A stretch of 53,190 nucleotides of DNA from NCBI GenBank assembly GCA_964393095.1, contig CAYMSL010000001.1, positions 1 through 53,190 on the forward strand, read 5' to 3'. The stretch's first letter is position 1. Each line of letters starts with the position of its first letter. A program made the position numbers and the translations under genes. Positions 4,006 to 35,713 of this stretch are shown here, in pieces. Below the pieces are notes generated by a model that saw only the letters and a list, made by a program, of their open reading frames with translations, was not told the DNA's origin and searched no databases. This DNA comes from an uncultured Oscillospiraceae bacterium. Lineage in GTDB: Bacteria; Bacillota; Clostridia; Christensenellales; CAG-138.

Positions 4006-4034
4006 GGATAAAATTTGCTTCGGAGGCATACGGC

Positions 4035-5509: not shown

Positions 5510-5529
5510 TTTTTTGGGGGTACGCCGCT

Positions 5530-8208: not shown

Positions 8209-8286
8209 TGCTTTGCGACGGCGCTTTGCCGCTTTGGCGCCGGTTTTCTCCGGGCGCGGCACAAACCGTTTGCATGAGGAGGTTTC

Positions 8287-22105: not shown

Positions 22106-22867
22106 TTACAATCGAATCGCAAACCCTTCAAACTGAGCGAACCCGCCGCCATGGCGCAGATTGCCTTCAGCTTGCAGCCGCCGCAAGGCATCCCTTACCC
22201 TTATGAGCAGATCCGCTTGTATGTTCAGGCTGTGATGCGCCGGAAAAACCCGCTTGACACGAAGCGCGGCGACGCGCTCGACAGACGCCAAGTAGGCTTC
22301 GGGATCGGTGGAGGGAAAATCGGCAAAGAGGGTTCCCTGATAGACCAGATCTCCGCTAAAGAGATAGCCGCGCTCCGCTTCATAAAAACACATATGGCCG
22401 GGCGAATGCCCCGGCGTATGCAACACGCTCAAAACGCGGCCGCCAAGGTCGATCATATCGTTATCCCGAAGCACGCGCGCGGGCGTTCCCTGAAAAATCG
22501 CGTAATCATTCGCATCGTACCCATCAGGCAGGGTGCAGCGATCCAGCAGCATCGTGCGAACCTGTTCTGTGGTCAGGGGGAATCCGCCGTTTAGCCAGCA
22601 TAGCTCCTGTTCATGGCAGTAAAACAGCGGGAAGTGCCGATGGCCGCCGATGTGATCCCAATGCGCATGGGTCGCCGCGGCAATGACCGGCCGATCGGTC
22701 CACTCGATCACCGCCTGCGAAATATCGCCGATTCCGAGGCCCGTATCGATCAATAGGCTCCGATCGGAACCGTTGAGCAGGTAGGCGTGCGTCTCCTCCC
22801 AATGGCGGTATTCGCTGATGATATGCGTATCGCCGTCGATGTGTTCTATCGTAAACCAGTCGTTCAT
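22106..22867 (-). CDS. MBL-fold metallo-hydrolase
   Basis: Trimmed to MNDWFTIEH.... HxHxDH motif (THAHWDHIGG) and a later HTPGHSPGH. ~253 aa. Confidence 0.8.
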   Translation of the reverse strand: MNDWFTIEHIDGDTHIISEYRHWEETHAYLLNGSDRSLLIDTGLGIGDISQAVIEWTDRPVIAAATHAHWDHIGGHRHFPLFYCHEQELCWLNGGFPLTTEQVRTMLLDRCTLPDGYDANDYAIFQGTPARVLRDNDMIDLGGRVLSVLHTPGHSPGHMCFYEAERGYLFSGDLVYQGTLFADFPSTDPEAYLASVERVAALRVKRVFPAHHSLNIQADLLIRVRDALRRLQAEGNLRHGGGFAQFEGFAIRL

Positions 22868-23235
22868 CCGTTTTATTCCATCCCTTGCGCGGACTTCCGC
22901 CGTACCCCGCGCAGCTTTGCGCCGGGCGCAATCCTTATTGTTCACTCTAGCATGATTTGCGGCCTTCCGCAACGGCGTTACGGCGCGAAAGGACGCGCTG
23001 CTTTACGGCGTATCAGCGCATAACCGAACACCCGCGGCGTTTTGACCGCTTCTTTAAACGCGAAGAGAACACAAGCCGGCATACGCCGCCTTTTTGAGGG
23101 CGCTACCGGCCGCATCGCATCGGATTTCATTGCTCTGTCAATGATTGGTTGAAAGCGGGATCGCGCCCGTTTTGACGGTTCCGGAGCGCCGATTCCGCTG
23201 ACGCAAAAAATACGCCGAACGCCGTTTCTCCGCGC

Positions 23236-23934
23236 CTATACCGCCAGATAATGCTTGGCGAGTTCCTCGGTCAAATCGCAGGTATTCCCGCGCGCGACGA
23301 TCTGGCCCTTCTGCATCATCAGGTAGGAGTCGGCGAGCCTCCGCGCAAATTTCAGGTTCTGCTCCACCACCAGGGTCGTGATGGAGAGTTCTTCGGAAAT
23401 AGAGAGCAGTATGTCCGCAATCTCGCTGACGATGTTGGGCTGTATCCCCTCGGTCGGCTCGTCGAGCAGCATGATCCGCGGCGAGGCCATGAGACACCGC
23501 GCGATGGCAAGCTGCTGCTGCAGCCCGCCCGAAAGAACGCCGCCCTTTCTCTCGAGATGCACGTTGAGCGAGGGAAAATACTCAAGCACCTTCTTCATCT
23601 GCTGCGCGCAGTTGATGTGCTTATGCCCGAGCATGCCAAGCTCCATGTTTTCCCGCACCGTCAGGTTGGAGATGATCTCCCTGCCCTGCGGCACATATCC
23701 CATCCCGGCGCGGGAACGCAAATAGGGAGAAAGCTTACTGATGTCTCTTCCCTCGAACTCGATCACGCCCGCCTCGAGCGGCAGCACGCCAATCAAACTT
23801 TTGAGCAGCGTCGTCTTGCCCACGCCGTTGCGCCCCAATATGGCGATGCGCGCCTTGGTGCCGGCCTCGAAGGAAACGCCGTTTATAATCTTGCTCTTGC
23901 CGTAGTTGGTCATCAGGTCTTTCGCGCTCAGCAT
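23236..23934 (-). CDS. ABC transporter ATP-binding protein (LivF/UrtE-like)
   Basis: Walker A GRNGVGKTT, signature LSGGLQQQLAIARCL, Walker B MLLDEPTEG. 232 aa. It is the last gene of the operon. Confidence 0.85.
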   Translation of the reverse strand: MLSAKDLMTNYGKSKIINGVSFEAGTKARIAILGRNGVGKTTLLKSLIGVLPLEAGVIEFEGRDISKLSPYLRSRAGMGYVPQGREIISNLTVRENMELGMLGHKHINCAQQMKKVLEYFPSLNVHLERKGGVLSGGLQQQLAIARCLMASPRIMLLDEPTEGIQPNIVSEIADILLSISEELSITTLVVEQNLKFARRLADSYLMMQKGQIVARGNTCDLTEELAKHYLAV

Positions 23935-24686
23935 GACTCACCCTCCTCGCCCTTGAGGTACACGCGCGCCACCTCGGCGTTTTGCTCCATCTCTTGGTAG
24001 GTTCCCTCGGCAAGCAGCGTTCCCTGGTGCATGACGGTGATGATGCTGCTGATCTGCTTGACAAACTCCATGTCGTGCTCGACCACGATCACCGTGTGAT
24101 CGGCCGCGAACGACTGGATCATGCGGCCGGTCTTTGCGGTCTCCTCGGCCGTCATGCCCGCCGTCGGCTCGTCGAGTATGATCAGCCTCGGGTCCTGCGC
24201 GATCACCATGCCCATCTCGAGCCACTGGCGCTGGCCGTGGGAGAGGAAGCACGCCATCGTCTTACGCTCCTCAAACAGGTCGACCTGCCGCAAAATCGCG
24301 TGCACACGCTCCTCGATCTGCCGCGTGCGCTTAAAGAACACCGTTTGCATAATGGAGGAATAGCCGTAAAGCGCAACCTCCACGTTCTGGTATGCCGTCA
24401 TGTTCTCAAAGAGGTTGGGGCCCTGGAACTTGCGGCCGATCCGGTACTTGAGGGAGATTTCGCTGGGGCTTTTACCGGTGATGTCGCACCCGTCGAATAC
24501 GATTCTGCCCTGGGTGGGCTTGGTCTTGCCGGTGATCATATCCATCAGCGTGGTCTTTCCCGCGCCGTTCGGGCCGATGACCACCCGAAGCTCACATTCC
24601 TTCACCGTCAGGTTCATGTTGCTGACGGCCTGAAATTTATTGAAATCCACGTACAGGCCGGTGACCTGCAAAATCGGTTCCGTCAT
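23928..24686 (-). CDS. ABC transporter ATP-binding protein (LivG/UrtD-like)
   Basis: Trimmed to MTEPILQVTGLYVDF (RBS AAAGGAGG). Walker A GPNGAGKTT. The UrtD-like signature LSHGQRQWLEMGMVIAQDPRLIILDEPTAGM is present. Confidence 0.85.
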   Translation of the reverse strand: MTEPILQVTGLYVDFNKFQAVSNMNLTVKECELRVVIGPNGAGKTTLMDMITGKTKPTQGRIVFDGCDITGKSPSEISLKYRIGRKFQGPNLFENMTAYQNVEVALYGYSSIMQTVFFKRTRQIEERVHAILRQVDLFEERKTMACFLSHGQRQWLEMGMVIAQDPRLIILDEPTAGMTAEETAKTGRMIQSFAADHTVIVVEHDMEFVKQISSIITVMHQGTLLAEGTYQEMEQNAEVARVYLKGEEGESC

Positions 24687-25759
24687 GAGCAAGCCTCCTT
24701 TTGATCGAACTCCGCGTTCTTGCGCTTGGCGCTGGCGCGGGCGTACTGGGAGGCGAGCAATTTGCCGATCAGCCCCGTGGGCAGGAAGAACACAAACACC
24801 AGCACCACGATGCCCATAATCAGCATCCAGTAATCCGATATCTGCTCGGAGAGCAGCGTCTGCGCCCAGTTGATGAGTATGGTTCCCACGATGGCGCCCG
24901 TGAGACTGCCCCTGCCGCCAATCGCCACCCATACAAGAAGAAGCGTCGACAGCGTCAGCCCCACCTCCGTGGGTGAAATAAAGCCGTTCGTGGGGATATA
25001 TAAAACACCCGCGAGTCCCGCCAGCACGCCGGAGATAATGTAGACCGCAATCTTGAAGCGGTTGGGCTTGTAGCCCAAAAACGTCAGCCGCGCTTCATTC
25101 TCCCGGATCGCCTGCAAAACCGTACCAAAACGGGTGCTGGTCAGCCAAATGCAGAAGAAGTAGGTCAGCAGCACCGTGCCAAGGAGTATATAGTACAGGC
25201 TGTTGAGTGAGATCGGCCCGCTGCCGAGCAGCGAACGCTCGAGCCCGCCGAGGCCGTTGCTGCCGTTGGTATATACGTGCTGGTTGGTTACGAACAGTTC
25301 GAATATCTGCGCGAGCGCCAGCGTAATCAGCGAGAAAAACACGCCGCTGATCTTGCTGTTAAATATGAACGTTCCTAAAAACGCCGCGATCAGCCCCGGT
25401 ATCAAAAGCGCCAGTACAAACGCCGCAGCGGGACTTAGCAGCGGCTGGAAGAGCGTGGGAATCCTCTCCAGGCCCGCTTGCTGCATGTACCATGGCAAAC
25501 CCTTGATGAACGTATAGGAAAGCGCGATGATGTAGCCCCCCGAGCCGAACAGCACGGCGTGGCCCATGCTCATCAGCCCCGTATAGCCCCACAGCAGATC
25601 GAGAGAAATGGCGAATATGATATACACCAAAACCTTGGACATCAGCTCTGTGCGAAACGGGTTAAACAGCATGGGGAATATGGCGAGAAACAGAAACGCC
25701 ACGAAATCGATATAGCGATTAACAGGCACGTTTTTCAGCTTTTGATGCAGCATAGGCAT
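24683..25759 (-). CDS. branched-chain/urea-type ABC permease (LivM/UrtC-like)
   Basis: 358-aa polytopic protein. ATGA overlap with the downstream ATPase gene. It has typical LivM-like hydrophobic repeats. Confidence 0.8.
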   Translation of the reverse strand: MPMLHQKLKNVPVNRYIDFVAFLFLAIFPMLFNPFRTELMSKVLVYIIFAISLDLLWGYTGLMSMGHAVLFGSGGYIIALSYTFIKGLPWYMQQAGLERIPTLFQPLLSPAAAFVLALLIPGLIAAFLGTFIFNSKISGVFFSLITLALAQIFELFVTNQHVYTNGSNGLGGLERSLLGSGPISLNSLYYILLGTVLLTYFFCIWLTSTRFGTVLQAIRENEARLTFLGYKPNRFKIAVYIISGVLAGLAGVLYIPTNGFISPTEVGLTLSTLLLVWVAIGGRGSLTGAIVGTILINWAQTLLSEQISDYWMLIMGIVVLVFVFFLPTGLIGKLLASQYARASAKRKNAEFDQKEACS

Positions 25760-25794
25760 CCCGCCCCCTATTCATTGCGCAAATGCGCGCAGCG

Positions 25795-26649
25795 TTACCT
25801 TTTTTCCTTGGAGAACAGCCCCTCGGGCTTAAAGCGAATCAGAATGATGATGATGACGAATATCAGTATCTTCGCGCCGACGTCGTTCCAAAATCCGCCG
25901 AGCACGGTCACGGATTCGCCGATGAGCGCCGCCGAGAATGCGGTGCCGAAGAGGGAATCCACGCCGCCGATGACCACGTTTAAAAACGCGTCGGTGAGAT
26001 ACTGCACGCCCATAAACGGTGACACCGTGCGAATCGGCGCGAGCATGGCGCCGGCAAGGCCGGCAAGCGCCGTGCCGTACGTGAACGTCACGGTATCGAT
26101 GCGCTGCGTGTTGATGCCAAGGCAGCCCGTCATGCTCCTGTTTTCCGTAATGGCGCGGATTTGTTTGCCGAGCGTGGTCTTATGGATGAGCAGCCAAGTG
26201 GAAAGCAGCGCAAGCGCGGCAACCAGCAGGATCACAAGGTTATAATACGGTATCGGCACGTCGCCGAGCTTGAGCGTCCCGGTGAGCGGGATGTTGACGT
26301 ATTTGAGTTCGGGGCCGCTGATAAAGCGCACCGCCTGCTGTATCACAAGCGAAAGCGCGTAGGTGGCAAGCAGCGTTTCGGCCGTCTTGCCGTAAAGCCG
26401 GCGGATTACGAGCCGCTCGATGGCCGCGCCCAGCAAGCCCGTGATCAGAAAAGCGCCGATGATCGAGAAGACATACGGCAGCTTCAATACCGTGCTGGTA
26501 TAGTACGTCACATACGCGCCAACCATAATCAGCTCGCCGTGCGCAAGGTTAACCACCTTCATATGCCCCATGATGATGACAAGGCCGAGCGCGGTCAGCA
26601 ACAGCAGCGCTGCGGAGTTGACGCCATTGGCAAGCAAGAGTCCAAGCAT
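25795..26649 (-). CDS. branched-chain/urea-type ABC permease (LivH/UrtB-like)
   Basis: 284 aa. LGLVIIMGHMKVVNLAHGELIMVGAY is a typical LivH N-terminal motif. Confidence 0.8.
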   Translation of the reverse strand: MLGLLLANGVNSAALLLLTALGLVIIMGHMKVVNLAHGELIMVGAYVTYYTSTVLKLPYVFSIIGAFLITGLLGAAIERLVIRRLYGKTAETLLATYALSLVIQQAVRFISGPELKYVNIPLTGTLKLGDVPIPYYNLVILLVAALALLSTWLLIHKTTLGKQIRAITENRSMTGCLGINTQRIDTVTFTYGTALAGLAGAMLAPIRTVSPFMGVQYLTDAFLNVVIGGVDSLFGTAFSAALIGESVTVLGGFWNDVGAKILIFVIIIILIRFKPEGLFSKEKR

Positions 26650-26684
26650 ACCCGAAGACCCCTTCTTTCTTCAGAACAATAGGG

Positions 26685-26718
26685 GTTCAGAGCACGGCGG
26701 CGACGCCGTGCTCTGAAC
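26685..26718 (-). other. perfect 15-bp intercistronic hairpin after the binding-protein gene
   Basis: GTTCAGAGCACGGCG, 4-nt loop, CGCCGTGCTCTGAAC. It lies between the SBP stop (26734) and the permease start (26649). No U-run follows. Confidence 0.7.
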
Positions 26719-26733
26719 AAGGGCCGTAACTTC

Positions 26734-27903
26734 TTACGGTTTGGGTTCGATCATCTCGGGGGATTCGAAGACGACCTTAAACGAAAGGTCGGACGCGACC
26801 TGCGCGATGCGGCCGCGGCACCAGAGATGATGGGTGGTCGGGTCGATCTTGATGCGGCCCTGCGGCGCGTCCATCTCAAGGCCCGCGAACGCCGCGAGTA
26901 TCGTCTCCGGCTTAAAGTCGGCGGCCTTCTCGAGCGCCATGGCCAGGAGCTTGACCGAATCGTAGCTCGCTTCGCCGACGCAGGTGACGTTGCGGTTGCC
27001 AAACTTCGCTTCGTAGTTATCTACGAACGTCTTGTTGGCCTCGCTCTCAACGGTGTTGAAGTAGTTGAAGCAGGAATAGTGTCCGACTGCCGCCTCGCCG
27101 ATCGCCGCGACCGAGGCTTCGTCCGTAATGGTGCTTGCGATGGGCATCGTGGCGGGATCGAACCCGTAGCTCTGGTACTGCTTGTAGAAGGCTACGGCGC
27201 TGTCGCCGTTGAGGTTCGCGTAGATCACGTCCGGATTGGCCTCCTTGATCTTTGCGATAACGGATGCGAAGTCCGCATTGCCCGAGGGGACGATCTCATT
27301 GCCGACGATCTCGCCGCCGTTGGCCTGCACCACCTCGACGGCCTGCGCGTGGATCAGAGAAACGTACACCGTCTCGGAACCCAGGAAGAAGAACTTCTTG
27401 CCCACGTTCTCAAGCAGCCACGGTACGAACAGATCGTTCTGCTGGTTGAGCACGCTGCCGGTGTAGATGAGGTTGGGGGAGGGATCTTCGCCTTCATAGT
27501 AGGTGGGGTAAACGAGTACGCCGTTGTTCTGCTCCACGACCGGCCGGGCCGCCACGCGGCTTGCCGAGGTGTACAGGCCAACCGTCGCCACAACCTGATC
27601 CTGCATGATCAGCTTTTTCATCTTGTCGGCAGCCTTGGCCGGATCGGTGGAGTAATCCTCAAATACCGGCACCAGCTTTTTGCCCTTGACGCCGCCCGCG
27701 GCGTTCACCTCATCGATCGCCATCATGGCCGCGTTGTACATGCACTCTTCGGAGATGGCCGTAGCGCCGGTCTTTGAGAAAATCAGACCGATCTTGATCT
27801 CATCCGACGCTTCCGTGCTTGCGGTCTTGGCGCACCCCACAAGCCCGACAACCATAATTGCGCACAACAACAACGCCAAACCGATCTTTGTCCTCTGTTT
27901 CAT
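26734..27903 (-). CDS. lipoprotein substrate-binding protein of the AmiC/UrtA (Peripla_BP_5) type
   Basis: Trimmed to MKQRTKIGLALLLCAIMVVGLVGC (lipobox). The body resembles AmiC/UrtA: IGLIFSKTGATA, YPTYYEGEDPSPNLIYTG, DAPQGRIKIDPTTHH, ESPEMIEPKP. Confidence 0.8.
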   Translation of the reverse strand: MKQRTKIGLALLLCAIMVVGLVGCAKTASTEASDEIKIGLIFSKTGATAISEECMYNAAMMAIDEVNAAGGVKGKKLVPVFEDYSTDPAKAADKMKKLIMQDQVVATVGLYTSASRVAARPVVEQNNGVLVYPTYYEGEDPSPNLIYTGSVLNQQNDLFVPWLLENVGKKFFFLGSETVYVSLIHAQAVEVVQANGGEIVGNEIVPSGNADFASVIAKIKEANPDVIYANLNGDSAVAFYKQYQSYGFDPATMPIASTITDEASVAAIGEAAVGHYSCFNYFNTVESEANKTFVDNYEAKFGNRNVTCVGEASYDSVKLLAMALEKAADFKPETILAAFAGLEMDAPQGRIKIDPTTHHLWCRGRIAQVASDLSFKVVFESPEMIEPKP

Positions 27904-27994
27904 GCCCACTGCCCCTTTCTTTTTCCTCTTTGTTATGTCGGCTTCCAGTTCCAGCTTTGGGTATTTCCAACGCAGCCCTGCGTTTGGAACGTGT

Positions 27995-28492
27995 TCAGTC
28001 CTTGGCCTCAATCGTCCGCGGCGCGGCCATTGCCGCGGCGGCCGTCGAAACCGCCTCGCTCATGGCCCGGTAACCGCCGCAGCGGCACAGATGTCCGCCC
28101 AGCGCCTCTACGATCTCTTCCTTCGACGGGTTGGGATGCCGCTCCAGCAGCGCTTTGGCCGCCACCAGCACGCCCGGGGTGCAGAACCCGCACTGTACCG
28201 CGCTGCGCTCGACAAACGCCTGCTGCAGCGGGTGCAGCGCTTCGTCGCTTGCAAGCCCCTCCACGGTCACGATTTGCGCGCCGTCGGCCTCAGCCGCGAG
28301 TATGATGCAGGAGCGCACGGGCTTGCCGTCCATCAGCACCGCGCACGCGCCGCACTCGCCGTTTTCACAGCCGGATTTCGTGCCGGTCAGCCCCAGCTCG
28401 TCCCGCAAAAAATGCAGCAGCGTCTGCGCGGGGTCCACCTCGGCAAAGATTCGCTCGCCGTTTACGATCATGCTAACCGGAATCCTGCTCAT
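27995..28492 (-). CDS. (2Fe-2S)-binding small subunit of an Xdh/Cox-family molybdoenzyme
   Basis: GCENGECGACAV and CGFCTPG...LCRCGGY cluster motifs. 165 aa. ATGA overlap with the upstream FAD subunit gene. Confidence 0.9.
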   Translation of the reverse strand: MSRIPVSMIVNGERIFAEVDPAQTLLHFLRDELGLTGTKSGCENGECGACAVLMDGKPVRSCIILAAEADGAQIVTVEGLASDEALHPLQQAFVERSAVQCGFCTPGVLVAAKALLERHPNPSKEEIVEALGGHLCRCGGYRAMSEAVSTAAAAMAAPRTIEAKD

Positions 28493-29340
28493 AGCCGCAC
28501 ACCTCGGTTCAGTTCCTCGACCGCCATTTGAATCAGCACGGGCACCATCGCCTTTTTATACTCCGGAGAGGCGCGCATGCTGCTGCGCCGGGGGCTGATA
28601 TCGCCCACGATCGCGGCCGCAGCTTCCTCGAGCAGCCGCTGCGAATACGGAGCGCTGTTGAGGATCTCCTCCGCCCGATGCGCGCGCGCCACGGTGGGCC
28701 ACGCCGCGCCCAGGGCGATGCGGAAGTTTTGGTATCCCTCGCAGTACACCGCCGCGCTGATGCCCGAAAGATCCATGCCCTTGACGCGGCTCCGGCGGTA
28801 ATATTTGCTCTTGCCGCCCGGGCCCGGCGCCTTGAGCGTTACGCCCCTTAGCACCTCGCCAGGCCGCAAATCCACCTTGCCCGGCCCGAGCAAGAACGCT
28901 TCGAGCGGCAGCTCCCGTTCCTCCGCCAGACTCACGAGCCGCACCTTTGCGTCGTAGAGCAGCAGGCCGGGAACGGAATCCGCGGACGGCGAGCCGTTGC
29001 AGATGTTGCCGCCGATGGTCGCGCGGTTGCGGATCTCGTAGCAGCCGATGTGGCCCGCGCCCTCTACGAGCGCGTGGTAGTCCTGCGCCAGCGGATGCTC
29101 GACCACCGCCTGCACGCTCTCCGCCGCGCCGATAAAGATGCCGCCCTCCACGCAATAGATGCCGCGCAACTCCGCAACGCCCTTGAGATCCAGCACGAGG
29201 TTGGGCGTGATCCTGTTTTCCCTGAGCAGCAGCAGAAGATCCGTGCCGCCCGCAAGCAGCTTTGCGCCCTCCGCGGCACTGTATTCGAGCAGTTCGCTTA
29301 ACGTGGCGGGCTTTTCATACCGATAGGAGCCTGTGATCAT
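28489..29340 (-). CDS. FAD-binding medium subunit of an Xdh/Cox-family molybdoenzyme
   Basis: 283 aa. LLAGGTDLLLLL FAD-binding motif, CoxM/XdhB-like. It overlaps both neighbouring genes by 4 nt. Confidence 0.85.
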   Translation of the reverse strand: MITGSYRYEKPATLSELLEYSAAEGAKLLAGGTDLLLLLRENRITPNLVLDLKGVAELRGIYCVEGGIFIGAAESVQAVVEHPLAQDYHALVEGAGHIGCYEIRNRATIGGNICNGSPSADSVPGLLLYDAKVRLVSLAEERELPLEAFLLGPGKVDLRPGEVLRGVTLKAPGPGGKSKYYRRSRVKGMDLSGISAAVYCEGYQNFRIALGAAWPTVARAHRAEEILNSAPYSQRLLEEAAAAIVGDISPRRSSMRASPEYKKAMVPVLIQMAVEELNRGVRL

Positions 29341-31655
29341 ACCTCTTCACCTCCGACGCGCGCAGAGATGATCCGATCCGCCGAAGCGGGGAGCGAATGG
29401 AAGCGCAGGCCCGTTGCGTCATAGATCGCGTTGAGCAGCGCCGGGGCCGTGCCGACCGCGCCGTGTTCGCCGATTCCCTTCGCGCCGTACGGGCCGGTTT
29501 CCTCGGGCGTCTGCACGAAGATCACCTCGCTTTGGCAGGGGATGTCCTCGATGCCCGGTATCTTGTAATCCACGAGCGTGTCGTTGCGCACCTTTCCCGT
29601 CTTGGGGTCGAACACCACCGTCTCGCAAAGCGCGCTACCCGCCGCCATGAGCATCGCGCCGCACACCTGCTCTCTTGCAAGCCCCGGGTTGATGATGGTT
29701 CCGGCGTCGATGGCGTTGAGCAGCCTTAGCACCGTGACCTCGCCCGTGCGCTGGTCCACGGCCACCTCCGCCCCCACGCAGCCGAACGTCCAGTCCGCGG
29801 CGGCGCTGCCCTGCCCCGTCTCGGCGTCGTGGTTCTGCACGCCCTGCGGCACAAAGCTGCCGATCCCCGACACGGGCCGCGTGATGGCCGTGCCGTCCGG
29901 ATTGCATAAACCGGTGGCAAACCTGCCCCAGTCGATGGAGCGATCGCCGCAGCGCACCTCGCCCGCGTGCGCCGTTACCTGATCGGCCGGCACGCCGAAC
30001 ACCTTAGCGCCCTCTTGACACAGCTTGCGCTTGAGATCCTCGGCCGCAAGCAGCACGGCGTTGCCCGAGCCCCATGTCGAACGGCTGGCCACCGTTTGCC
30101 AATCGTAGGGGGAGGTCAGCGTGTCCACGCAGTATTGGAAATGCACCTTTTCAAATGGAATACCCAGGGCCTCCGCGCCGATCTGCGCAAGCGCCGTATG
30201 CAGGCCCTGCCCCATATCCACCGCCCCCGTGCTCATGCTGACGCTGCCGTCGGCGTTGAGCTTGATCAGGGCACCAGACTGCGCGTTGCTCGGCATGCAC
30301 GGCGTCTTCATATAGGCGGCCATGCCGCGGCCAACGGTGATATGCGCGGGAAGTTCCGGCTTTACCGCGCCGAAAAGCTTTTCGGATATGATGCGCGTGC
30401 ACGCAACGACATCGCCGTTGGAAATATGCATGGTCTGACCGATGCCGTTTTGATCCCCCGCGCGCAGCAGGTTTTTAAGCCGCAGTTCCTGCGGCGGTAT
30501 GCCGAGCTTCTCCGCCGCCACGTCCATGAGGCTTTCCACCGCGAGGTGCACCTCCGGGTGCCCGTAGCCGCGCGCGGCGCCGATGGGCGGCGTATTCGTG
30601 TACACGCCGTATACGTCGAGCCGCAGATCGTCCACGCGGTAAGGCCCCGTTCCGGCCGATGCCATGCCGGTGATGATGTTTATGGCATAGTCCGCGTTTC
30701 CGCCGCTGCCCATAACGGATTCGCCCGTCATGGCGAGCAGACGGCCGGTTTTGTCGAACCCGAGCCGGTAACGGCAGTTGCTGTTACGTCCGTGGGTGGT
30801 TCCGCAGAACAACTCCTCGCGGCTAAGCAGCAGCCGCACGAAGCGGCCCGGCACCTGCCTTGCGACGCAGGCCACGAGCGCCTCGATCGTAATATCCGAT
30901 TTGCCGCCGAACCCGCCGCCGAGAAACGGCGCAACGACGCGGATGCGGTTGTAGGGAATCTCCAGCAGTTCCGCAATGGTCGTCTGCACGATAAACGGCG
31001 CCTGCGTCGTGGCGTACATCAGCATCGAATCGTCGCGCCCGTAGCAGGCAACCGCGCAGTGCGGTTCCATCTGGGCGTGGACGATGGAGGGGAAACGGTA
31101 TTCCCCCTCCACCACGCAATCCGCCTCGCCGAGCGCACGTTCGGCATCGCCCTTGCGGATTTTAAAATGCTGGTAGGTGTTGTGCCCCTCCCGGTGGACA
31201 TAGGGCAGCACCGGGTACTCCATGAGCTTTTCGTGCAATACGGGAGAGGACGTCTCTTTCGCCTCCCAGGCGTCGAGCACAAACGGCAGCGGCTCGTAAT
31301 CGACCTTGATGGCCTTGAGCGCACGCTCGGCCTCGCGCTCGCTGCGCGCCACAACCGCCGCCACCGGCTCGCCGATATAGCGGACTTTTTCCCTGGCGAT
31401 CGGATGCTGATCCTTTATGGCAACGCCGAAGGGGCCGGGCACGTCATGCCCCGTGACCACCTTGACGACGCCGGGCATATCGGCAGCCTCCGCCGTATCC
31501 ACGCCGCGTATGTTCGCGTGCGCGTATGTCGAGCGCAGCACCTTGATGTGCAGCAGGTTCGGAAAACGCATGTCGGCGGTGTAGAGCGTAGCGCCGGTCA
31601 CCTTTTCCACGCCGTCCATCCTGCTTGGGCTGGCGCCCACGGTTTGAAAAGCCAT
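29337..31655 (-). CDS. molybdopterin-binding large subunit of an Xdh/Cox-family hydroxylase
   Basis: 772 aa. N-terminus RMDGVEKVTGATLYTADM. GGGFGGK, GQGLHTALAQIGAEALGIP and GIGEHGAVGTAPALLNAIYDATG are hallmark motifs of aldehyde oxidase/xanthine dehydrogenase large subunits. Confidence 0.9.
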   Translation of the reverse strand: MAFQTVGASPSRMDGVEKVTGATLYTADMRFPNLLHIKVLRSTYAHANIRGVDTAEAADMPGVVKVVTGHDVPGPFGVAIKDQHPIAREKVRYIGEPVAAVVARSEREAERALKAIKVDYEPLPFVLDAWEAKETSSPVLHEKLMEYPVLPYVHREGHNTYQHFKIRKGDAERALGEADCVVEGEYRFPSIVHAQMEPHCAVACYGRDDSMLMYATTQAPFIVQTTIAELLEIPYNRIRVVAPFLGGGFGGKSDITIEALVACVARQVPGRFVRLLLSREELFCGTTHGRNSNCRYRLGFDKTGRLLAMTGESVMGSGGNADYAINIITGMASAGTGPYRVDDLRLDVYGVYTNTPPIGAARGYGHPEVHLAVESLMDVAAEKLGIPPQELRLKNLLRAGDQNGIGQTMHISNGDVVACTRIISEKLFGAVKPELPAHITVGRGMAAYMKTPCMPSNAQSGALIKLNADGSVSMSTGAVDMGQGLHTALAQIGAEALGIPFEKVHFQYCVDTLTSPYDWQTVASRSTWGSGNAVLLAAEDLKRKLCQEGAKVFGVPADQVTAHAGEVRCGDRSIDWGRFATGLCNPDGTAITRPVSGIGSFVPQGVQNHDAETGQGSAAADWTFGCVGAEVAVDQRTGEVTVLRLLNAIDAGTIINPGLAREQVCGAMLMAAGSALCETVVFDPKTGKVRNDTLVDYKIPGIEDIPCQSEVIFVQTPEETGPYGAKGIGEHGAVGTAPALLNAIYDATGLRFHSLPASADRIISARVGGEEV

Positions 31656-31689
31656 ATCCTTCTCCTTGGGTATGCGCCTAAGCTTCGCG

Positions 31690-32898
31690 TCAGCGGGGAA
31701 TCGTAACTTCCTTGCCGTTCTTGATCACGTGCAGCGGCGGCTCATGCTCCCAGATTGCATGGTAGACGTCCTCGGCCTGCAGCACCACAAGATCGGCGTT
31801 GCCGCCTACCTCGAGCACGTGTCCGCGGATGCCCAGCACCTTGGCGGCCGAAGTCGTGATCATATCGTAGAGAAGCTCCATGTCCGCAAACGACGTCATC
31901 CACATCAGATGGACGGCGAGGAAGGCGATCTCGAGCATGTTGCAGCGTCCGAAGGGATAGTACGCGTCCGCGATATCGTCCTGCCCAAGCGCCACCGGGA
32001 TGCCGGCCGCCGCAAGATCCCGCACGCGCGCGTACAGCGGGCCGGTGTGCGGATCGGCCACGAGACCGATGCCCGCCTTTTTGAGCAGCGCCACGAGCTT
32101 GCGGAAATAGTTCTCGCCATAGAGCGCCATGGCGCGGCAGTGCTGGGCGGTTACGCGGCCCTGCCAGCCCTCCTTGATGGTGCGAAGGGCTGCCATTTCG
32201 AGCGTCCGCTCCTCGGCGTCGCCCACGTCGTCGAGCAGCATGGAGACGTTGCGGTTGTGCTTGACTGCAATGTCGAACATCCGATCGACATGCGCCTGCT
32301 CGTCGGCCTTCGTAAATTCGATCCACGGGATGCCGCCCACCACCTCCGCGCCCATCTCCAGCGCCTTGAGCACATAGCCCTCGGCCTCCGGCTCGCGAAC
32401 CACGCCGTCCTGCGGGAAGGCAACCACCTGGAGTTCTACTTTATCCTTGTATTCCTCGCGCGCCTTGAGCAGCGCCTTGATGCCCTCGAGCCTGGCCTTG
32501 GAATCCACGTCCGCAAAGGCGCGGATGTGCGTGTTGCCGTAGCGCAGCGCAAGGTCGCAAACCCGCCGCACATTCGGCAGTATCCACGATTCGTCGTAGG
32601 CGGCCTTGAAATCCGCCGCGCGCTCAATCGCCGTCATCGCGCCGCCCATGCCGCCCTGGTGATATTCTCCAAGCGCCGCCTGGCCGGCCATTTCCAGCGT
32701 GTATACCTTGCACAGATGCAGATGGCCGTTGATAAAGGACTCGGTCACAAGCCGGCCGCCGGCGTCGATCACCTTTTCCGCCTCTTTGGGGAGATTGGGC
32801 GCGATCGCGATGATCTTGCCGTCCTGTATGCCAATCGAGAGCAGTTCCGCGTTTCCGCGGCGCGTACGCGCGTTGGTGATTAACAAATCGTAAGCCAT
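31690..32898 (-). CDS. CodA-like amidohydrolase (cytosine deaminase / AtzC / creatinine deaminase subfamily)
   Basis: 402 aa. It appears colinear with E. coli CodA, recalled from memory: DGKIIAI, HxH metal motif (NGHLHL), QVVAFPQDG, VVGGIPWIEF, VTAQHCRAM, ALGQDD. It is the first gene of the operon, with RBS GGGAGGAAAG. Confidence 0.75.
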   Translation of the reverse strand: MAYDLLITNARTRRGNAELLSIGIQDGKIIAIAPNLPKEAEKVIDAGGRLVTESFINGHLHLCKVYTLEMAGQAALGEYHQGGMGGAMTAIERAADFKAAYDESWILPNVRRVCDLALRYGNTHIRAFADVDSKARLEGIKALLKAREEYKDKVELQVVAFPQDGVVREPEAEGYVLKALEMGAEVVGGIPWIEFTKADEQAHVDRMFDIAVKHNRNVSMLLDDVGDAEERTLEMAALRTIKEGWQGRVTAQHCRAMALYGENYFRKLVALLKKAGIGLVADPHTGPLYARVRDLAAAGIPVALGQDDIADAYYPFGRCNMLEIAFLAVHLMWMTSFADMELLYDMITTSAAKVLGIRGHVLEVGGNADLVVLQAEDVYHAIWEHEPPLHVIKNGKEVTIPR

Positions 32899-33245
32899 GT
32901 GTCTTTCCTCCCGTTTGCTTATTGCTTATATTGAAGGTCCCTCGCGCCGCGGGGGATGCCCGCCCTGTTGCGGAGGCCTCAAAAGCCGCTCTTTGCGATG
33001 GCCTTTTCCCGCGCTTTACAGCGTATCGTCGCGTCCTAAATGCGTTTGTCCTGCGTAACGCCTAAACCCGTTCTCGGTGCTCACAAAGAAAACGGGCCGC
33101 AAACATCGGGAAACGCCAAGACGCTCTTCCTTTGACATCACTTTTCCTCGCCGCCGGGGAGTTTTTCAGATTTTCGTTGTAACGCGTAAAAAGCAGATCG
33201 CTGTCGGGTTGTATACGTGAAGAATTTCGAAGGAACGAATGGTCG

Positions 33246-33257
33246 GTAACCGGTTAC
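33246..33257. promoter_or_regulatory. candidate LacI-family operator (perfect 12-bp palindrome GTAACCGGTTAC)
   Basis: The palindrome lies immediately downstream of the -10 of the minus-strand operon promoter. It has LacI/PurR-type half-site character (GTAAC-CG-GTTAC). Confidence 0.45.
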
Positions 33258-33270
33258 ATTACGTTTTCAA

Positions 33271-33297
33271 TTTATATCACGAACGTGCGCTTGTCAA
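33271..33297 (-). promoter_or_regulatory. candidate promoter of the amidohydrolase-molybdoenzyme-ABC operon
   Basis: Minus strand: TTGACA (33297-33292), 15-16 nt spacer, TATAAA/ATAAAT (33276-33270). This would leave a ~360-nt leader before the ATG at 32898. Confidence 0.45.
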
Positions 33298-33421
33298 GAG
33301 TGCAGCAAGAAAAAATTGCATGGTTTGCGATCCGATCCTTCATTTTCGACATCCGAACCCGCCGGGACGGGCCGAGCGGGCAAAGCGGTGCGCCCTTCTT
33401 CGCGCCTGTTTCTGCATGCGC

Positions 33422-33450
33422 TTGTAAGCGCGATGAGCACATGATATACT
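33422..33450 (+). promoter_or_regulatory. candidate promoter of the LacI-family regulator gene
   Basis: TTGTAA (33422-33427), 17 nt spacer, TATACT (33445-33450). Confidence 0.4.
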
Positions 33451-33557
33451 GCCCTCAAGGGTTTGGGCTGCTTGTATCTATTTATGCCGAATCCCGCCGC
33501 CATCGAATCGCCGGCGGCGGTCTGTGCGGCCGCGTCAAAGCCTTGCGGCGGGGGGAT

Positions 33558-34586
33558 ATGACGGTGAATATCAGGGAGATTGCAAAAGAAGCCAGCGTTT
33601 CCGTTGCAACCATATCCCGCGTGCTGAATCACCCGGAGGTCGTCCAGGCCGATACGCGCGAGCGCGTGCTGGATATTATGAAGCGCAACAACTATACCCC
33701 GAATTGGTGCGCACGGGGCCTGAGCCTAGGCAAAACCCGCACGATCGCTCTGTTTATCCCCAATATCGAGATGGAAAAATATCAGATGGTGATGTCCGGC
33801 GCGGAGACCGTGGCGATGAACAAGGGCTATAACCTGTTTATCTGCAGCACGCGCTATGACCCGCAGATGGAGAACAATCATCTGGATATGATCATTCAGC
33901 GGAAGGTGGACGGCGTGATGCTGGCCGGCTCCAGGCTTTCGGAGCGGCGTTACGACGAACTTCTCGATCTCTCGCTCCCCTTCGTTTGCGTCGGCGTACA
34001 GCAGGAGCACAGGCGCTACGACTGCTGCAGCATCAACTACAGCGACGGCGTATACCGTCTCGCGACCCATATGATCAAGATGGGGCACTTTTCCATCGAC
34101 CTGCTGCTCAACGATATGCTACCCGAGGAATCCCGCATGATCTACGACGGCTTCTGCCAGGCCGTCGAGGATTCGGGCGAGGATATACAAAGCCGTACCT
34201 TCGAGGTGGACCTTGGCATGCAGGGGGGCTATTTCTTCGCCCAGCGCATGATGCAATCCACAAGCCTGCCCCGCGCCGTCATCACCTACAACGACGCGCA
34301 GGCGTTCGGCATCATGAAATCCGCCCAGGCTTCGGATATCAAGATACCCTCCGAGCTCGCGCTGGCGGCGCTGTCGGAATCCCCGGTGGCCGCCCTGATC
34401 ACGCCGGCGCTGACCACGCTCGAACTGCCCGATAAAAAGCTCGGCATGGTGGCCGCACGCATGCTGATCGACCGGATTGAGGGCACCTCCGCAGAAGATA
34501 CCGGCCAGGAGATCATTCTCCAGCCCAAGCTCAAGGTGCGCCACTCCTGCGGCAACACGAAATTTATCTACGAGCTTTTCGACTAA
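33558..34586 (+). CDS. LacI/PurR-family transcriptional regulator
   Basis: Trimmed to MTVNIREIAKEASVSVATISRVLNHPEVV..., a canonical LacI HTH. A periplasmic-binding-protein-like effector domain follows. Confidence 0.9.
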   Translation: MTVNIREIAKEASVSVATISRVLNHPEVVQADTRERVLDIMKRNNYTPNWCARGLSLGKTRTIALFIPNIEMEKYQMVMSGAETVAMNKGYNLFICSTRYDPQMENNHLDMIIQRKVDGVMLAGSRLSERRYDELLDLSLPFVCVGVQQEHRRYDCCSINYSDGVYRLATHMIKMGHFSIDLLLNDMLPEESRMIYDGFCQAVEDSGEDIQSRTFEVDLGMQGGYFFAQRMMQSTSLPRAVITYNDAQAFGIMKSAQASDIKIPSELALAALSESPVAALITPALTTLELPDKKLGMVAARMLIDRIEGTSAEDTGQEIILQPKLKVRHSCGNTKFIYELFD

Positions 34587-34600
34587 GGGGGCGTAAGGAA

Positions 34601-35713
34601 ATGAACCTGTCCGTCGAACTGGGAGGACTGACGCTGAAGAATCCGGTCATGGTCGCCGCCGGACCCTGGTCTGGCAGCGTGGAGGGCGTGCGCAGATGCA
34701 TCGAGATGGGCGCGGGCGCCGTGGTGACCGAAACCATCGCGATGGAAACGCAGCCGTCGCTGCACCCTTACTTCCACGTGAGCGGAAACCAGGTGTTCAA
34801 CATCAAGCTTTATTCGAGCATATACCTCGAGCAGTGGGAGAAGAACCTTGCCGATCTCGATAAATGCGGGGCCAAGCTCATCTGTAGTATCTGGGGCGAT
34901 ACGACGTCCGAAATCCGCTATCTGGCCGCCTGCGTTGAGCGGATGGGGGCCGACGCCATCGAGCTGAGCCTATCCGCTCCGATCGGAACGCGCTACCGTT
35001 CGTTTTTCACGCACCTCGACCATACCGCACGTCTCGTAGAAGCCGCGGTCAAGGCCGTCGATCTGCCGGTTCTTGTCAAGCTTCCCTATGAGGCGAGCTA
35101 TTTCCCCGAAATGCTGCAAACGGCCTATGACGCCGGGGCGAAGATCGTAACCGCGATCGACGCGCTCAAGGGTCTCAGCGGCGTGGATGTGGAAAACCGC
35201 CAGACCTGGATGCCCGCTTTCGGCGGGTATTCCGCAGAAAACATACGGCCGATCTCGCTTGCGACCACGGCGATGCTCAAGCAGTATACGCCGTTTCACA
35301 TCTGCAGCTGCGGCGGCATCTTCACCGACGAACACGCGCTGGAGTTCATCATGCTCGGCGCAAGCGCCATACAGCTCGCCTCGGCGATCCACATCGAAGG
35401 CTACGAGGTCATCGGGCGCGTCCTCCAGGGGCTTGAAACATGGATGGGCAAACACGGCTATTCCGACCCCTCCGAGATCCGCGGCGCGGCGCTCTCCTCC
35501 CTGCGGCCCTTCGAGGATATCCCGCCGAAGCCCGTGCGGGCACAGCTGACCGAGCCTTGCGCCACGGAGTGCGATATCTGCCGCCGCGGTTGCATCTACC
35601 AGGCCATCTCCCGGCAGGGCGGCGGCATCGCGCTTGACCAGAAGGCCTGCACCGGCTGCGGATACTGCCTCGCCCGCTGTCCCGAGGAGAAGTTTGTCTG
35701 GGATTGGATTTGA
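34601..35713 (+). CDS. dihydroorotate/dihydropyrimidine dehydrogenase-like TIM-barrel flavoprotein with C-terminal 2x[4Fe-4S] ferredoxin domain (PreA-like architecture, atypical active-site loop)
   Basis: N-terminus LGGLTLKNPVMVAAGPW is DHOD/DPD-like. C-terminal CxxCxxCxxxCP-type motifs (CDICRRGCIYQA, CTGCGYCLARCP). The canonical loop N-x-S-C-P-N reads S-L-S-A-P-I here. Confidence 0.7.
   Translation: MNLSVELGGLTLKNPVMVAAGPWSGSVEGVRRCIEMGAGAVVTETIAMETQPSLHPYFHVSGNQVFNIKLYSSIYLEQWEKNLADLDKCGAKLICSIWGDTTSEIRYLAACVERMGADAIELSLSAPIGTRYRSFFTHLDHTARLVEAAVKAVDLPVLVKLPYEASYFPEMLQTAYDAGAKIVTAIDALKGLSGVDVENRQTWMPAFGGYSAENIRPISLATTAMLKQYTPFHICSCGGIFTDEHALEFIMLGASAIQLASAIHIEGYEVIGRVLQGLETWMGKHGYSDPSEIRGAALSSLRPFEDIPPKPVRAQLTEPCATECDICRRGCIYQAISRQGGGIALDQKACTGCGYCLARCPEEKFVWDWI

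Follow-up and report, generated by a model that had tools for sequence, protein, structure and literature searches.

A probably LacI-controlled operon joining an AtzC/CodA-clade amidohydrolase to a molybdenum hydroxylase and a Urt-like importer: a candidate module for breakdown of small N-heterocyclic bases in gut or digester Clostridia and other anaerobes

We analyzed a 53,190-nt stretch of DNA from an uncultured Oscillospiraceae bacterium (contig CAYMSL010000001.1; hereafter the window, to whose full length all positions refer), focusing on a locus at 23236-35713. There, genes for an amidohydrolase (AH), a three-subunit molybdenum (Mo) hydroxylase of the xanthine-oxidase family and an ATP-binding cassette (ABC) importer with a lipoprotein solute-binding protein (SBP) are transcribed away from genes for a LacI-family repressor and a flavoprotein of the dihydroorotate dehydrogenase (DHOD)/dihydropyrimidine dehydrogenase (DPD) superfamily. 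Genes were predicted from open reading frames (ORFs), domains were assigned by Pfam and families by NCBIfam cut-offs. An earlier note, made from the sequence letters, had listed eleven genes here, and the ORF list and Pfam bear out their identities, order and coordinates. The features are as follows.

31690-32898, minus strand: AH, amidohydrolase of the R-type (Arg318/Glu323); Amidohydro_3; assigned by Pfam, NCBIfam (below cut-off), alignments and an AlphaFold2 (AF2) model
29337-31655, minus strand: Mo subunit, the molybdopterin-binding large subunit, xanthine-oxidase family; Ald_Xan_dh_C and MoCoBD_1/2
28489-29340, minus strand: FAD-binding medium subunit, 283 aa; Pfam (FAD_binding_5), NCBIfam; ATGA overlap with the Mo gene
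27995-28492, minus strand: small iron-sulfur (FeS) subunit with 2x[2Fe-2S]; Pfam, NCBIfam; ATGA overlap with the FAD gene
26734-27903, minus strand: lipoprotein SBP of UrtA/AmiC type; Peripla_BP_5/6; signal peptide and lipobox LVGC
26685-26718, minus strand: G+C-rich 15-bp hairpin between the SBP and permease genes; from sequence
25795-26649, minus strand: UrtB-like ABC permease; BPD_transp_2; NCBIfam 280 bits, above the cut-off of 250
24683-25759, minus strand: UrtC-like ABC permease; BPD_transp_2; NCBIfam 293.8 bits against a cut-off of 296.2
23928-24686, minus strand: UrtD-like ABC ATPase, start ATG at 24686 overlapping the permease stop; NCBIfam 304.2 against 304.1
23236-23934, minus strand: UrtE-like ABC ATPase; Pfam; NCBIfam 279.6 against a cut-off of 285.8
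33246-33257, no strand: perfect 12-bp palindrome GTAACCGGTTAC, candidate LacI operator; the only exact copy in the window
33269-33297, minus strand: promoter-like site TTGACA-17-TAAATT facing the AH operon; consensus match only
33558-34586, plus strand: LacI-family repressor; helix-turn-helix (HTH) and periplasmic-binding-protein fold (Pfam)
34601-35713, plus strand: DHOD/DPD-superfamily FMN protein with one C-terminal 2x[4Fe-4S] domain; PF01180; Pfam, NCBIfam, eight C-terminal Cys

The nine minus-strand genes run from 32898 down to 23236 in the order AH, Mo, FAD, FeS, SBP, two permeases and two ATPases, and the very short junctions described before are present in the sequence: ATGA overlaps join the Mo and FAD genes (29337-29340), the FAD and FeS genes (28489-28492) and the second permease and first ATPase genes (24683-24686), and the UrtD-like and UrtE-like genes overlap by 7 nt (23928-23934). 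Some starts were corrected. The first ATPase begins at 24686 and LacI at 33558, and the SBP most likely begins at 27903, judging by the lipoprotein signal MKQRTK...LVGC, and not at the TTG at 28011; its gene then lies 91 nt past the FeS gene with no overlap. The single transcript proposed in the earlier note agrees with the operon structure, with one modification: the hairpin is a likely attenuator or processing site setting the SBP:permease ratio, so that the one transcript may be attenuated or processed internally.

This arrangement is not a chance one, because the identical nine-gene order is kept in five other loci (L004/L005, L011, L012 and L014; L numbers denote individual related loci) with protein identities of 75-91%; the earlier note's worry that the combination might be absent from related genomes can be set aside, and the locus is a real regulator-controlled operon. 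The metallo-beta-lactamase gene that follows downstream (22106-22972) is missing from every related locus and therefore lies outside the unit. The view of the locus as uncharacterised also stands: UrtB and UrtD aside, its NCBIfam matches fall below cut-off, the best solved relatives of its enzymes are only ~30% identical, no close characterised homologue (>50%) came to light, and literature searches on the cluster itself, xanthine amidohydrolase, oxalurate/parabanate, barbiturase/uracil dehydrogenase, the structure 8TG1 and anaerobic barbiturate turned up no description of the system.

The claim that did not survive concerns AH, which had been called a CodA-family deaminase. AH misses the cut-offs of both relevant NCBIfam models (PRK07572, 279 against 438; PRK09230, 227 against 483), and its solved relatives, E. 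coli CodA and AtzC, are ~30% identical to it. For comparison within its family we found ~580 matches among species-representative genomes, fetched 80 loci (at most ±10 kb around the gene, the span that all locus counts below cover) and examined 88 family members or loci overall. Where CodA has the metal ligand His214 AH has Leu221, and where CodA has the proton-shuttle Glu217 it has Asp224; Leu occupies the His214 position in 88 of 88 family members, none of which has the HxxE motif, that stretch reading L(L/I/V/M)DD instead (Leu221-Leu-Asp-Asp224 in the window). To our knowledge, this strand-5 metal His is kept also by the other deaminases of the CodA/AtzC clade. The remaining CodA-type residues are invariant, namely H59 and H61 (HxH, strand 1), H253 (strand 6), D307/D308 (strand 8) and Q163; the CodA counterparts of the kept residues are His246, Asp313/Asp314 and Gln156, together with Phe154 (Phe161 in AH). 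The loss of the strand-5 His and of HxxE in all 88 members argues against a CodA-type deaminase.

Several features bring AH nearer to AtzC: both have a Lys after HxH (AH Lys64, AtzC Lys65) and an Asp at the CodA-Glu217 position, and both lack a 13-residue insertion of CodA. Of the AtzC metal ligands His60, His62, His217 and Asp303, AH has equivalents of the HxH pair and the Asp and not of His217, which aligns with Leu221. In the AF2 model of AH (pLDDT 84) strand 5 ends at Leu221, and Foldseek returned AtzC as the best match (TM 0.86, 28% identity), followed by CodA and 5-methylcytosine deaminase, with TM values in the range 0.86-0.88. By alignment and predicted fold, then, AH is a member of the AtzC/CodA clade closer to AtzC than to CodA. 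The substrate of AtzC is a 2,4-dioxo ring. In CodA the Gln and Phe read the cyclic -NH-CO- edge of cytosine; Gln163, Phe161 and Lys64 would be the pocket residues that do so in AH, and most simply AH would open a ring amide bond at the site where CodA removes an amino group. We consider it more likely, on its sequence, that AH is a ring-opening hydrolase.

The contrary proposal would keep AH as a deaminase of cytosine, isoguanine, ammelide/ammeline, creatinine or a similar compound, the Mo enzyme hydroxylating the product or the substrate and nitrogen leaving as ammonia. The fold speaks for this, since the closest solved relatives of AH are deaminases or aminohydrolases (CodA, 5-methylcytosine deaminase, AtzC), as does the Asp at the Glu217 position, which AtzC shares; and the minimal two-enzyme operon of Anaerolineae, AH with the Mo hydroxylase, makes sense as a nitrogen-scavenging deaminase plus hydroxylase. 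We nevertheless regard it as very unlikely. The strand-5 metal His that both CodA and AtzC keep has given way to Leu in every family member; AH is tightly linked to AllFGH-type genes and a second hydrolase, as described below, which implies a ureide product and not ammonia alone; and canonical deaminases are encoded alongside AH. A true cytosine deaminase (497 bits, above the cut-off of 483) stands beside AH in Aminivibrio, divergent from an operon for a Bmp-type importer, Mo, FeS and AH, and an HxxE-type CodA-like gene does so in Lachnospiraceae loci, so that AH is not redundant with them and presumably has a distinct role. The creatinine deaminase idea in particular was dropped, the deaminase signature being missing and the transporters being of nucleobase type.

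A search of 5.8 billion proteins showed a tight AH family (at least 70% identity) in Clostridia, Synergistales, Coriobacteriales, Lachnospiraceae and others, none of its members characterised, while no plasmid-borne copy above 60% identity was found. The hosts are anaerobes of gut, rumen, digester and sediment, among Clostridia, Lachnospiraceae, Synergistaceae, Anaerolineae, Spirochaetes and Coriobacteriales, amounting to several hundred species. Ten residues past the metal-binding Asp the family divides by a charge reversal: 62 of the 80 species genomes carry the R-type (Gly-Arg318-x-Asn-Met-Leu-Glu323) and 18 the E-type (Glu318/Gln323). A Mo subunit is encoded in the locus in 45 of the 62 R-type genomes (30 of 35 when loci of at least 15 kb are considered) and in none of the 18 E-type genomes. 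Because ORF calling for the neighbourhood clustering was crude and left some antisense artefacts (clusters 17, 20 and 24), counts were re-checked by tblastn. In CodA the loop corresponding to the Arg318/Glu323 region lines the C5-C6 edge of the ring, and the charge reversal would fit a specificity switch tied to the oxygen added by the Mo enzyme.

The family occurs in three recurrent gene settings, and the division into R-type and E-type follows them exactly. In the first, found in Anaerolineae, Synergistaceae and Spirochaetes, a Bmp-type ABC importer is followed by Mo, FeS and AH. The second is that of the window, with AH, Mo, FAD, FeS, a UrtA-like SBP and UrtBCDE, shared with L004/5, L011, L012 and L014; in another window-type locus, L015, a CodB-like permease replaces the ABC system after AH-Mo-FAD-FeS. 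The third, of Lachnospiraceae type, begins with PucR, AllH-AllF-AllG, a cyclase-family hydrolase, an optional 8-oxoguanine-deaminase-like gene, a UraA/RutG-like permease and AH, and continues with a transporter of short-chain-fatty-acid type, carbamate kinase and a second permease, without any Mo enzyme. The E-type clusters (L006-L008, L018-L022, L024 and L028-L031; Lachnospiraceae including Schaedlerella arabinosiphila and Lacrimispora indolis) also hold a nitroreductase-family protein. In E-type loci the UraA/RutG-like permease ends 11 nt upstream of AH and is 37-40% identical to RutG. This is their only resemblance to the Rut system by BLAST; the nitroreductase was considered as a RutE homologue, which would have made an "anaerobic Rut pathway", and was rejected because it has no BLAST similarity to any Rut enzyme. 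The E-type loci have a purine flavour too, with PucR regulators, a pbuX-like NCS2 permease and the 8-oxoguanine-deaminase-like amidohydrolase. Amidase-signature genes occur in some AH loci, and Aminivibrio-type loci have one allantoinase/hydantoinase-like gene.

The earlier note had observed that the window has no barbiturase, allantoinase or XdhC, and this holds; in the whole 53 kb there is also no hydantoinase, AllFGH or carbamate kinase. The locus is all the same no isolated oddity, since sister loci contain AllFGH, a cyclase-family hydrolase and carbamate kinase. The fullest of them, L012 (Ca. Pelethousia), is close to the window (AH 87%, Mo 81%, SBP 86%, LacI 77% and flavoprotein 79% identical). 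Its operon faces the LacI-flavoprotein pair and starts with a PNPOx-like gene, an unknown gene, a thiolase-like gene and a DUF35 gene, followed by AllH, AllF, AllG, a cyclase-family gene, AH, Mo, FAD, FeS, SBP and UrtBCDE; where the locus stops, the first genes (FAD, FeS) of a second hydroxylase set have begun. L091 repeats the LacI side of this layout, AllH-AllF-AllG-cyclase standing directly before AH, inside which that locus ends. In L026 (a complete genome, "Bacterium M3-1") and L076, Bmp-Mo-FeS-AH is joined to AllF-AllG-cyclase and a second FAD-FeS-Mo set. Altogether, AllFGH-type genes adjoin AH in L012, L091, L026, L076, L058 and the E-type loci.

The interval between LacI and AllH deserves separate mention: in L012 (2167-5151) and L091 (5798-8066) it encodes a 224-268-aa protein without a family match, a thiolase-like protein and a DUF35/zinc-ribbon protein, with the PNPOx-like flavoprotein in L012 only, and all of these genes are missing from the window.

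AllF and AllG of the sister loci are 40-47% identical to the subunits of E. coli oxamic transcarbamylase, the enzyme that these E. coli proteins were shown to form in 2024 (PMC11326118), and the L012 AllF passes the NCBI FdrA cut-off. Carbamate kinase, 60% identical to YqeA, is found among the loci examined in the E-type only. The presence of AllFGH beside AH suggests that AH and its partners feed a carbamoyl-phosphate-forming step of the AllFGH type in these relatives, and together with carbamate kinase it implies a gain of ATP from the carbamoyl group. We therefore read the window locus as a reduced form of a broader ureide/pyrimidine catabolic system.

Because AllFGH is characterised for oxalurate, one may ask whether oxalurate is the ureide here. 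The Mo enzyme(s), AH and the cyclase-family hydrolase would make it from a hydantoin-, parabanate- or creatinine-derived-type compound, either a five-membered ureide or an oxidised one, and AllFGH would split it as in E. coli, to oxamate and then oxalate. Besides the AllF/AllG similarity and the FdrA score just given, the amidase-signature genes and an oxalate-type CoA-transferase-like gene in some loci would suit such a route, as would the cyclase family, one of whose members, isatin hydrolase, acts by opening a cyclic alpha-keto amide. In a Streptococcus, according to a reference cited in PMC11326118, parabanic acid is reported to have induced oxamate transcarbamylase. Against it, we know of no Mo hydroxylase that oxidises the sp3 C5 of hydantoins; the transporters and deaminases of the related loci are of cytosine, uracil or purine type and not of hydantoin or allantoin type; and BLAST found no AllC/D/E homologues in the AH loci, nor any AllB/C/D/E-type gene save the one allantoinase-like gene of Aminivibrio. 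We judge the oxalurate route highly improbable.

The side contexts of AtzC offer a further observation. On pADP-1 (L104, NC_004956.1; 20219-22447 and 42490-48737) atzC lies directly beside the arcC carbamate kinase gene, and the ABC system of AtzT, a BMP-family protein, adjoins another amidohydrolase. This hints that AtzC may have been recruited from a ureide cluster of an AH-like enzyme plus carbamate kinase.

We now turn to the Mo enzyme. It has the general features of the xanthine-oxidase family, with an a/b-hammerhead and MoCoBD_1/2 in the large subunit, a FAD_binding_5 subunit and a 2x[2Fe-2S] subunit, and the catalytic Glu730 (bovine E1261) is kept in the motif IGEHG. However, an ordinary xanthine dehydrogenase (XDH)/guanine pathway can be rejected: the best NCBIfam model, XdhA, gives 538.7 against a cut-off of 780, all XDH equivalog cut-offs are missed, identity to E. 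coli XdhA and XdhD is ~31%, and there are no XdhC, uricase or allantoin genes. The pocket comparison suggested in the earlier note was less informative than hoped; the positions of bovine E802 and R880 are Ser253 and Gly330, so that the bovine residues are indeed missing, but this is a weak test of specificity as E. coli XdhA and XdhD differ there too. Other motifs of the window subunit are GGKSD and RGYGH. The AH-adjacent Mo subunits of the Bmp-type and window-type settings are only ~40% identical, yet have in common G(G/Y)KSD, RGYGH and MK(S/T)P, all of which are missing from the second Mo enzymes of the richest loci. Among solved structures the closest relative of the Mo subunit is 4-hydroxybenzoyl-CoA reductase (4-HBCR; 4e-108), ahead of bovine xanthine oxidase; the 4-HBCR equivalogs are missed by a wide margin (alpha 504.7 against 994.55; beta 84 against 404.55, the latter matching residues 6-115 only), and the 283-aa FAD subunit is without the 4-HBCR-type Fe-S insertion.

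Of the importer parts, UrtB (280 against 250) and UrtD (304.2 against 304.1) pass their models, UrtC (293.8 against 296.2) and UrtE (279.6 against 285.8) just miss theirs, and the SBP scores 332.2 bits on the UrtA model with its cut-off of 492.75 and is not a canonical urea binder; its closest solved structure is 8tg1, which has no named ligand, followed by UrtA proteins and AmiC. In the related loci UrtABCDE-like, Bmp-type ABC, CodB-type NCS1 and NCS2 permeases appear interchangeably.

The regulator and the flavoprotein suggest a pyrimidine. On the plus strand, as proposed before, a LacI gene is followed after 14 nt by a DHO_dh gene with a C-terminal 2x[4Fe-4S] domain, and the two are probably co-transcribed. 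As in LacI/PurR-family repressors generally, there is an N-terminal HTH, the fold is that of periplasmic binding proteins, and the candidate operator in the divergent region is a palindrome centred on CG; the protein is 77% identical to its L012 counterpart and 43-49% to those of L092/L095. The divergent intergenic region (32899-33557) is unusually long, ~660 nt. Rfam matched no known riboswitch in it, and apart from the 12-bp palindrome it does not resemble what lies upstream in related loci. This palindrome, GTAACCGGTTAC, comes directly after the promoter-like site from which the AH operon would be read, and it recurs exactly or with one or two mismatches in the divergent intergenic regions of L012, L013, L091, L092/93, L094, L098 and L099-101. 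It is plausibly the shared LacI operator, and if so the window operon probably answers the same kind of effector as the loci with cytosine genes among them. In five further lineages, namely Christensenella (L092/93), Alkalispirochaeta americana (L094), L095-97, L098 and L099-101, a LacI-flavoprotein pair 43-54% identical to that of the window stands divergently beside a CodB-type permease (cytosine-permease equivalog, 474 against 326; 47% identity to E. coli CodB) and an HxxE CodA-like amidohydrolase, with a Mo-FAD-FeS enzyme of another subfamily in three of the five. The base-like effector that the earlier note had suspected from the LacI family is reinforced by these associations. Regulation is not uniform, however: L004, an 88%-identical relative, is without LacI and flavoprotein and has a DUF362 Fe-S protein and an HTH_3 regulator (8191-9333) upstream of the nine-gene operon, so that control differs among close relatives.

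The flavoprotein gene follows the LacI gene in every context inspected (six lineages). Its DHOD/DPD-like label is correct as to architecture, a PF01180 FMN TIM-barrel followed by 2x[4Fe-4S] without a FAD/NADPH domain, i.e., the PydAc/UacX type; C. difficile UacX and the ferredoxin-dependent clostridial PydAc variant are likewise PF01180 proteins without the FAD domain (PMC7332683). The label does not extend to the active site: Ala replaces the DPD catalytic Cys671, a position occupied by Cys or Ser in DHOD, and the two Asn that bind the pyrimidine, Asn668 and Asn736, are Ser and Asp. The motifs concerned, ELSLSAPIG (N668S, C671A) and VTAIDALKG (N736D, T737A), are conserved in 120 family members; the best NCBIfam model, PreA, gives 165 against a cut-off of 335, and the family of homologues, 45-98% identical, is large (at least 120 clusters, P0121-P0240). 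This atypical Cys-less DHOD/DPD subfamily is an uncharacterised enzyme class, tied in the contexts inspected to LacI and cytosine-type genes.

The presence of this flavoprotein brings to mind a reductive route resembling the 2,8-dioxopurine pathway, in which the Mo enzyme would dehydroxylate or otherwise prepare the ring, the flavoprotein would dearomatise it and AH would cleave the reduced ring, the three being functional analogues of XdhD-YgfM, UacX/YgfK and SsnA. In its favor, the locus has each of the three enzyme classes under a single divergent control region, the Mo subunit has a reductive dehydroxylase (4-HBCR) as its nearest solved relative, C. difficile UacX is a PF01180 protein without the FAD domain like ours (PMC7332683), and reduction and hydrolysis had to be coupled in the 2,8-dioxopurine pathway. 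On the other hand, most loci with AH and Mo (Anaerolineae, Synergistaceae, Spirochaetes) have no DHOD-like gene, the flavoprotein is without the proton-donor Cys and the two substrate-binding Asn of DPD, the FAD subunit is without the 4-HBCR Fe-S insertion, and AllFGH substrates are acyl-ureas, which derive from oxidised and not reduced rings. When the E. coli 2,8-dioxopurine proteins were compared by BLAST with all locus ORFs, no YgeW/X/Y or YgfK was found and SsnA matched AH466 genes only, at 23%; no locus has homologues of SsnA, HyuA, YgeW/X/Y or YgfK, the allantoinase/hydantoinase-like gene of Aminivibrio-type loci being the exception. A reductive route thus seems quite unlikely to us.

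Taking these observations together, we read the locus as a probable LacI-repressed module for catabolism or nitrogen scavenging, whose substrate is a small 2-oxo N-heterocyclic base, most likely of the cytosine/uracil type; the host would be a strictly anaerobic member of the Clostridia related to Candidatus Pelethousia. Let us assume that the base enters through the UrtBCDE-like ABC system with its UrtA-derived lipoprotein. The Mo/FAD/2Fe-2S enzyme would then hydroxylate a ring C-H next to nitrogen (C6 in the case of uracil, giving barbiturate), electrons leaving via the FAD subunit, and AH would attack a ring carbonyl and open the ring to an acyl-ureide (ureidomalonate in that case). Arg318, found in the Mo-linked AH subfamily only, might bind the new oxo or enolate group. 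In the sister genomes the AllFGH-type carbamoyltransferase, the cyclase-family amidohydrolase and carbamate kinase would process the ureide further, to carbamoyl phosphate (and then ATP, NH3 and CO2) and an amide acid (malonamate, and then malonate). LacI would bind GTAACCGGTTAC between the divergent promoters and be released by the base or an intermediate, and the flavoprotein, which belongs to the system, perhaps serves as an electron sink, reducing a second molecule of the base, or oxidises a hydrated intermediate. For the general scheme with a pyrimidine-type substrate, i.e., import, Mo hydroxylation and ring opening by AH to an acyl-ureide, we see about an even chance.

The pyrimidine reading is favored because of the associations with cytosine permease/deaminase genes, with the UraA/RutG-like permease and with malonate decarboxylase. 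The last is seen in L095-97, where an operon of LacI, DHOD-like, Mo-FAD-FeS and CodA-like genes runs directly into malonate decarboxylase (L095 13608-16142; a carboxyltransferase and MdcA, which at 796.7 bits passes its cut-off of 789.15), while a cytosine permease gene is divergent. The known oxidative uracil route ends in malonate, and this cluster looks like one for anaerobic conversion of cytosine or uracil to malonate, without an obvious ring-opening enzyme. A sequence from uracil (or deaminated cytosine) through barbiturate and ureidomalonate to malonamate/malonate and carbamoyl phosphate, as inferred from the gene content, would use every conserved part. The fully specified form, an undescribed anaerobic oxidative pyrimidine pathway in which the Mo hydroxylase makes barbiturate, AH is a non-homologous replacement for barbiturase and AllFGH phosphorolyses ureidomalonate with a yield of ATP, is more speculative, and we put it forward as a tentative possibility that may well prove wrong in one or more of its steps.

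A number of facts weigh against this interpretation. The window has no AllFGH, cyclase-family gene, carbamate kinase or malonate decarboxylase; malonate decarboxylase was found in none of the 88 AH loci, its link comes from one lineage only (L095-97), and there the amidohydrolase (HxxE type, 34-38%) and the Mo subunit (31%) belong to subfamilies other than those of the window. AllFGH has been characterised for oxalurate alone and not for ureidomalonate, and the CoA-transferase beside AH in L058 scores best against CoA:oxalate transferase. A conversion of uracil to malonate requires no reductase, which leaves the flavoprotein without a step in the scheme. The metal site of AH is without the strand-5 His. 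Lastly, related loci have purine-flavoured neighbours (PucR, the pbuX-like permease, the 8-oxoguanine-deaminase-like gene), and the R-type operon found most often has Bmp SBPs whose nearest relatives are AtzT and a Brucella Bmp structure, both binders of purine bases.

Such neighbours and SBPs would be accommodated if the substrate were a purine. The Mo enzyme would hydroxylate an oxopurine (e.g., xanthine to urate) and AH would open the pyrimidine ring to a 4-ureido-imidazol(on)e-5-carboxylate, making AH the long-sought xanthine/urate amidohydrolase, with AllFGH and carbamate kinase of the sister genomes harvesting the ureido group. The presence of two different Mo hydroxylases in the richest loci is in accord with this, and the CodA pocket also accepts the purine isoguanine. 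For the classical clostridial xanthine amidohydrolase route, the genes appear in the literature searched as genome-based candidates only (PMC3519856). We consider the purine alternative unlikely all the same: the Mo subunit is distant from E. coli XdhA/XdhD and below every XDH equivalog cut-off, the aryl-ureido product is not an acyl-urea like the known AllFGH substrate, the conserved core contains no candidates for a decarboxylase, an aminoimidazole deaminase or an imidazolonase, and the permease, deaminase and malonate decarboxylase links listed above favor pyrimidines.

Elsewhere in the window the genes are of a housekeeping kind (GMP synthase, MazG, MurJ-like, phosphotransferase system, MupG), with a few regions worth recording. 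What looks like a corrinoid methyltransferase system occupies 2380-7089: it encodes a PucR-like regulator (2380-3906), a corrinoid protein that binds B12 (4865-5509) and a reductive activator of RACo type (5530-7089), along with an ORF to which Pfam assigns no domain (3999-4895). At 8287-10119 an energy-coupling-factor transporter S component is fused to a Mur ligase resembling folylpolyglutamate synthase, and the next gene (10179-10820) encodes a formiminotransferase-cyclodeaminase C-domain protein. The segment 38001-40000, across DUF4003 and M50-like peptidase genes, has a G+C content of 0.465 against ~0.6 elsewhere and may be acquired DNA.

If the pyrimidine interpretation is right, these loci would add a further anoxic route of nucleobase breakdown to the reductive Pyd, oxygen-dependent Rut and aerobic oxidative routes, and a new means by which fermenters gain ATP from a ureide; in the fully specified form of the pathway that ATP would come straight from the uracil ring. 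The function of AH bears on nitrogen and nucleobase turnover in the microbiome and on drug metabolism, e.g., of fluoropyrimidines, and the family illustrates how a deaminase scaffold may be rebuilt for other hydrolysis through loss of a metal ligand and an Arg/Glu specificity switch. It is also a plausible natural source of the AtzC now used in atrazine degradation, atzC being still beside carbamate kinase on pADP-1. The interest of the system lies in its occurrence in hundreds of anaerobe species, its remodelled active site, the ATP-yielding step and this possible origin of AtzC.

Judged by the defining features of each, as far as they can be read from sequence, the locus falls outside the CodA, AtzC, XDH, 4-HBCR, Urt, DPD/DHOD and 2,8-dioxopurine families, and a comparison with each known system shows where. 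Closest in logic, as compared by enzyme class, is the oxidative pyrimidine pathway of Rhodococcus and Mycobacterium (uracil/thymine dehydrogenase, barbiturase, ureidomalonase): in both, a heterotrimeric Mo/FAD/Fe-S hydroxylase adds a ring carbonyl and an amidohydrolase gives a malonate-yielding ureide, as we propose here, and malonate decarboxylase adjoins a related cluster (L095-97). Unlike that pathway, the window has neither barbiturase, with its cyanuric-acid-hydrolase fold, nor ureidomalonase, and has an AtzC/CodA-clade TIM-barrel AH instead; the hosts are strict anaerobes; and the sister loci would swap hydrolytic release of urea for AllFGH-type phosphorolysis to carbamoyl phosphate. With AtzC and CodA themselves AH shares the fold, HxH, the strand-6 His, the strand-8 Asp-Asp and the equivalents of Gln156 and Phe154, and differs by its low identity (~30%), the Leu for the strand-5 His, the missed NCBIfam cut-offs and the pairing with a Mo hydroxylase and AllFGH.

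The anaerobic allantoin/oxalurate branch of E. coli and Enterococcus has its AllF/G/H and carbamate kinase homologues in the sister loci and none in the window, but in place of the AllB/C/D/E feed of that branch there are AH, the cyclase-family hydrolase and the Mo hydroxylases. The 2,8-dioxopurine (reductive uric acid) pathway, which in 2025 work by Liu et al. and Li et al. is said to use XdhD-YgfM, YgfK/UacX and SsnA, is alike in that an anaerobe's nucleobase cluster brings together an amidohydrolase, a Mo enzyme of the xanthine-oxidase family and an Fe-S flavoprotein of the PydA/DHOD superfamily; unlike it, the locus has an AtzC/CodA-like AH and not SsnA, a Mo subunit ~31% identical to XdhD and a flavoprotein without the DPD Cys. 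Finally, the importer has the five-component architecture of the urea transporter UrtABCDE, with UrtB and UrtD at equivalog scores; its SBP, to be compared with UrtA and the amide-binding proteins AmiC and FmdD, scores 332 against the UrtA cut-off of 492.75, and unlike the urea transporter it sits inside a heterocycle-catabolic operon.

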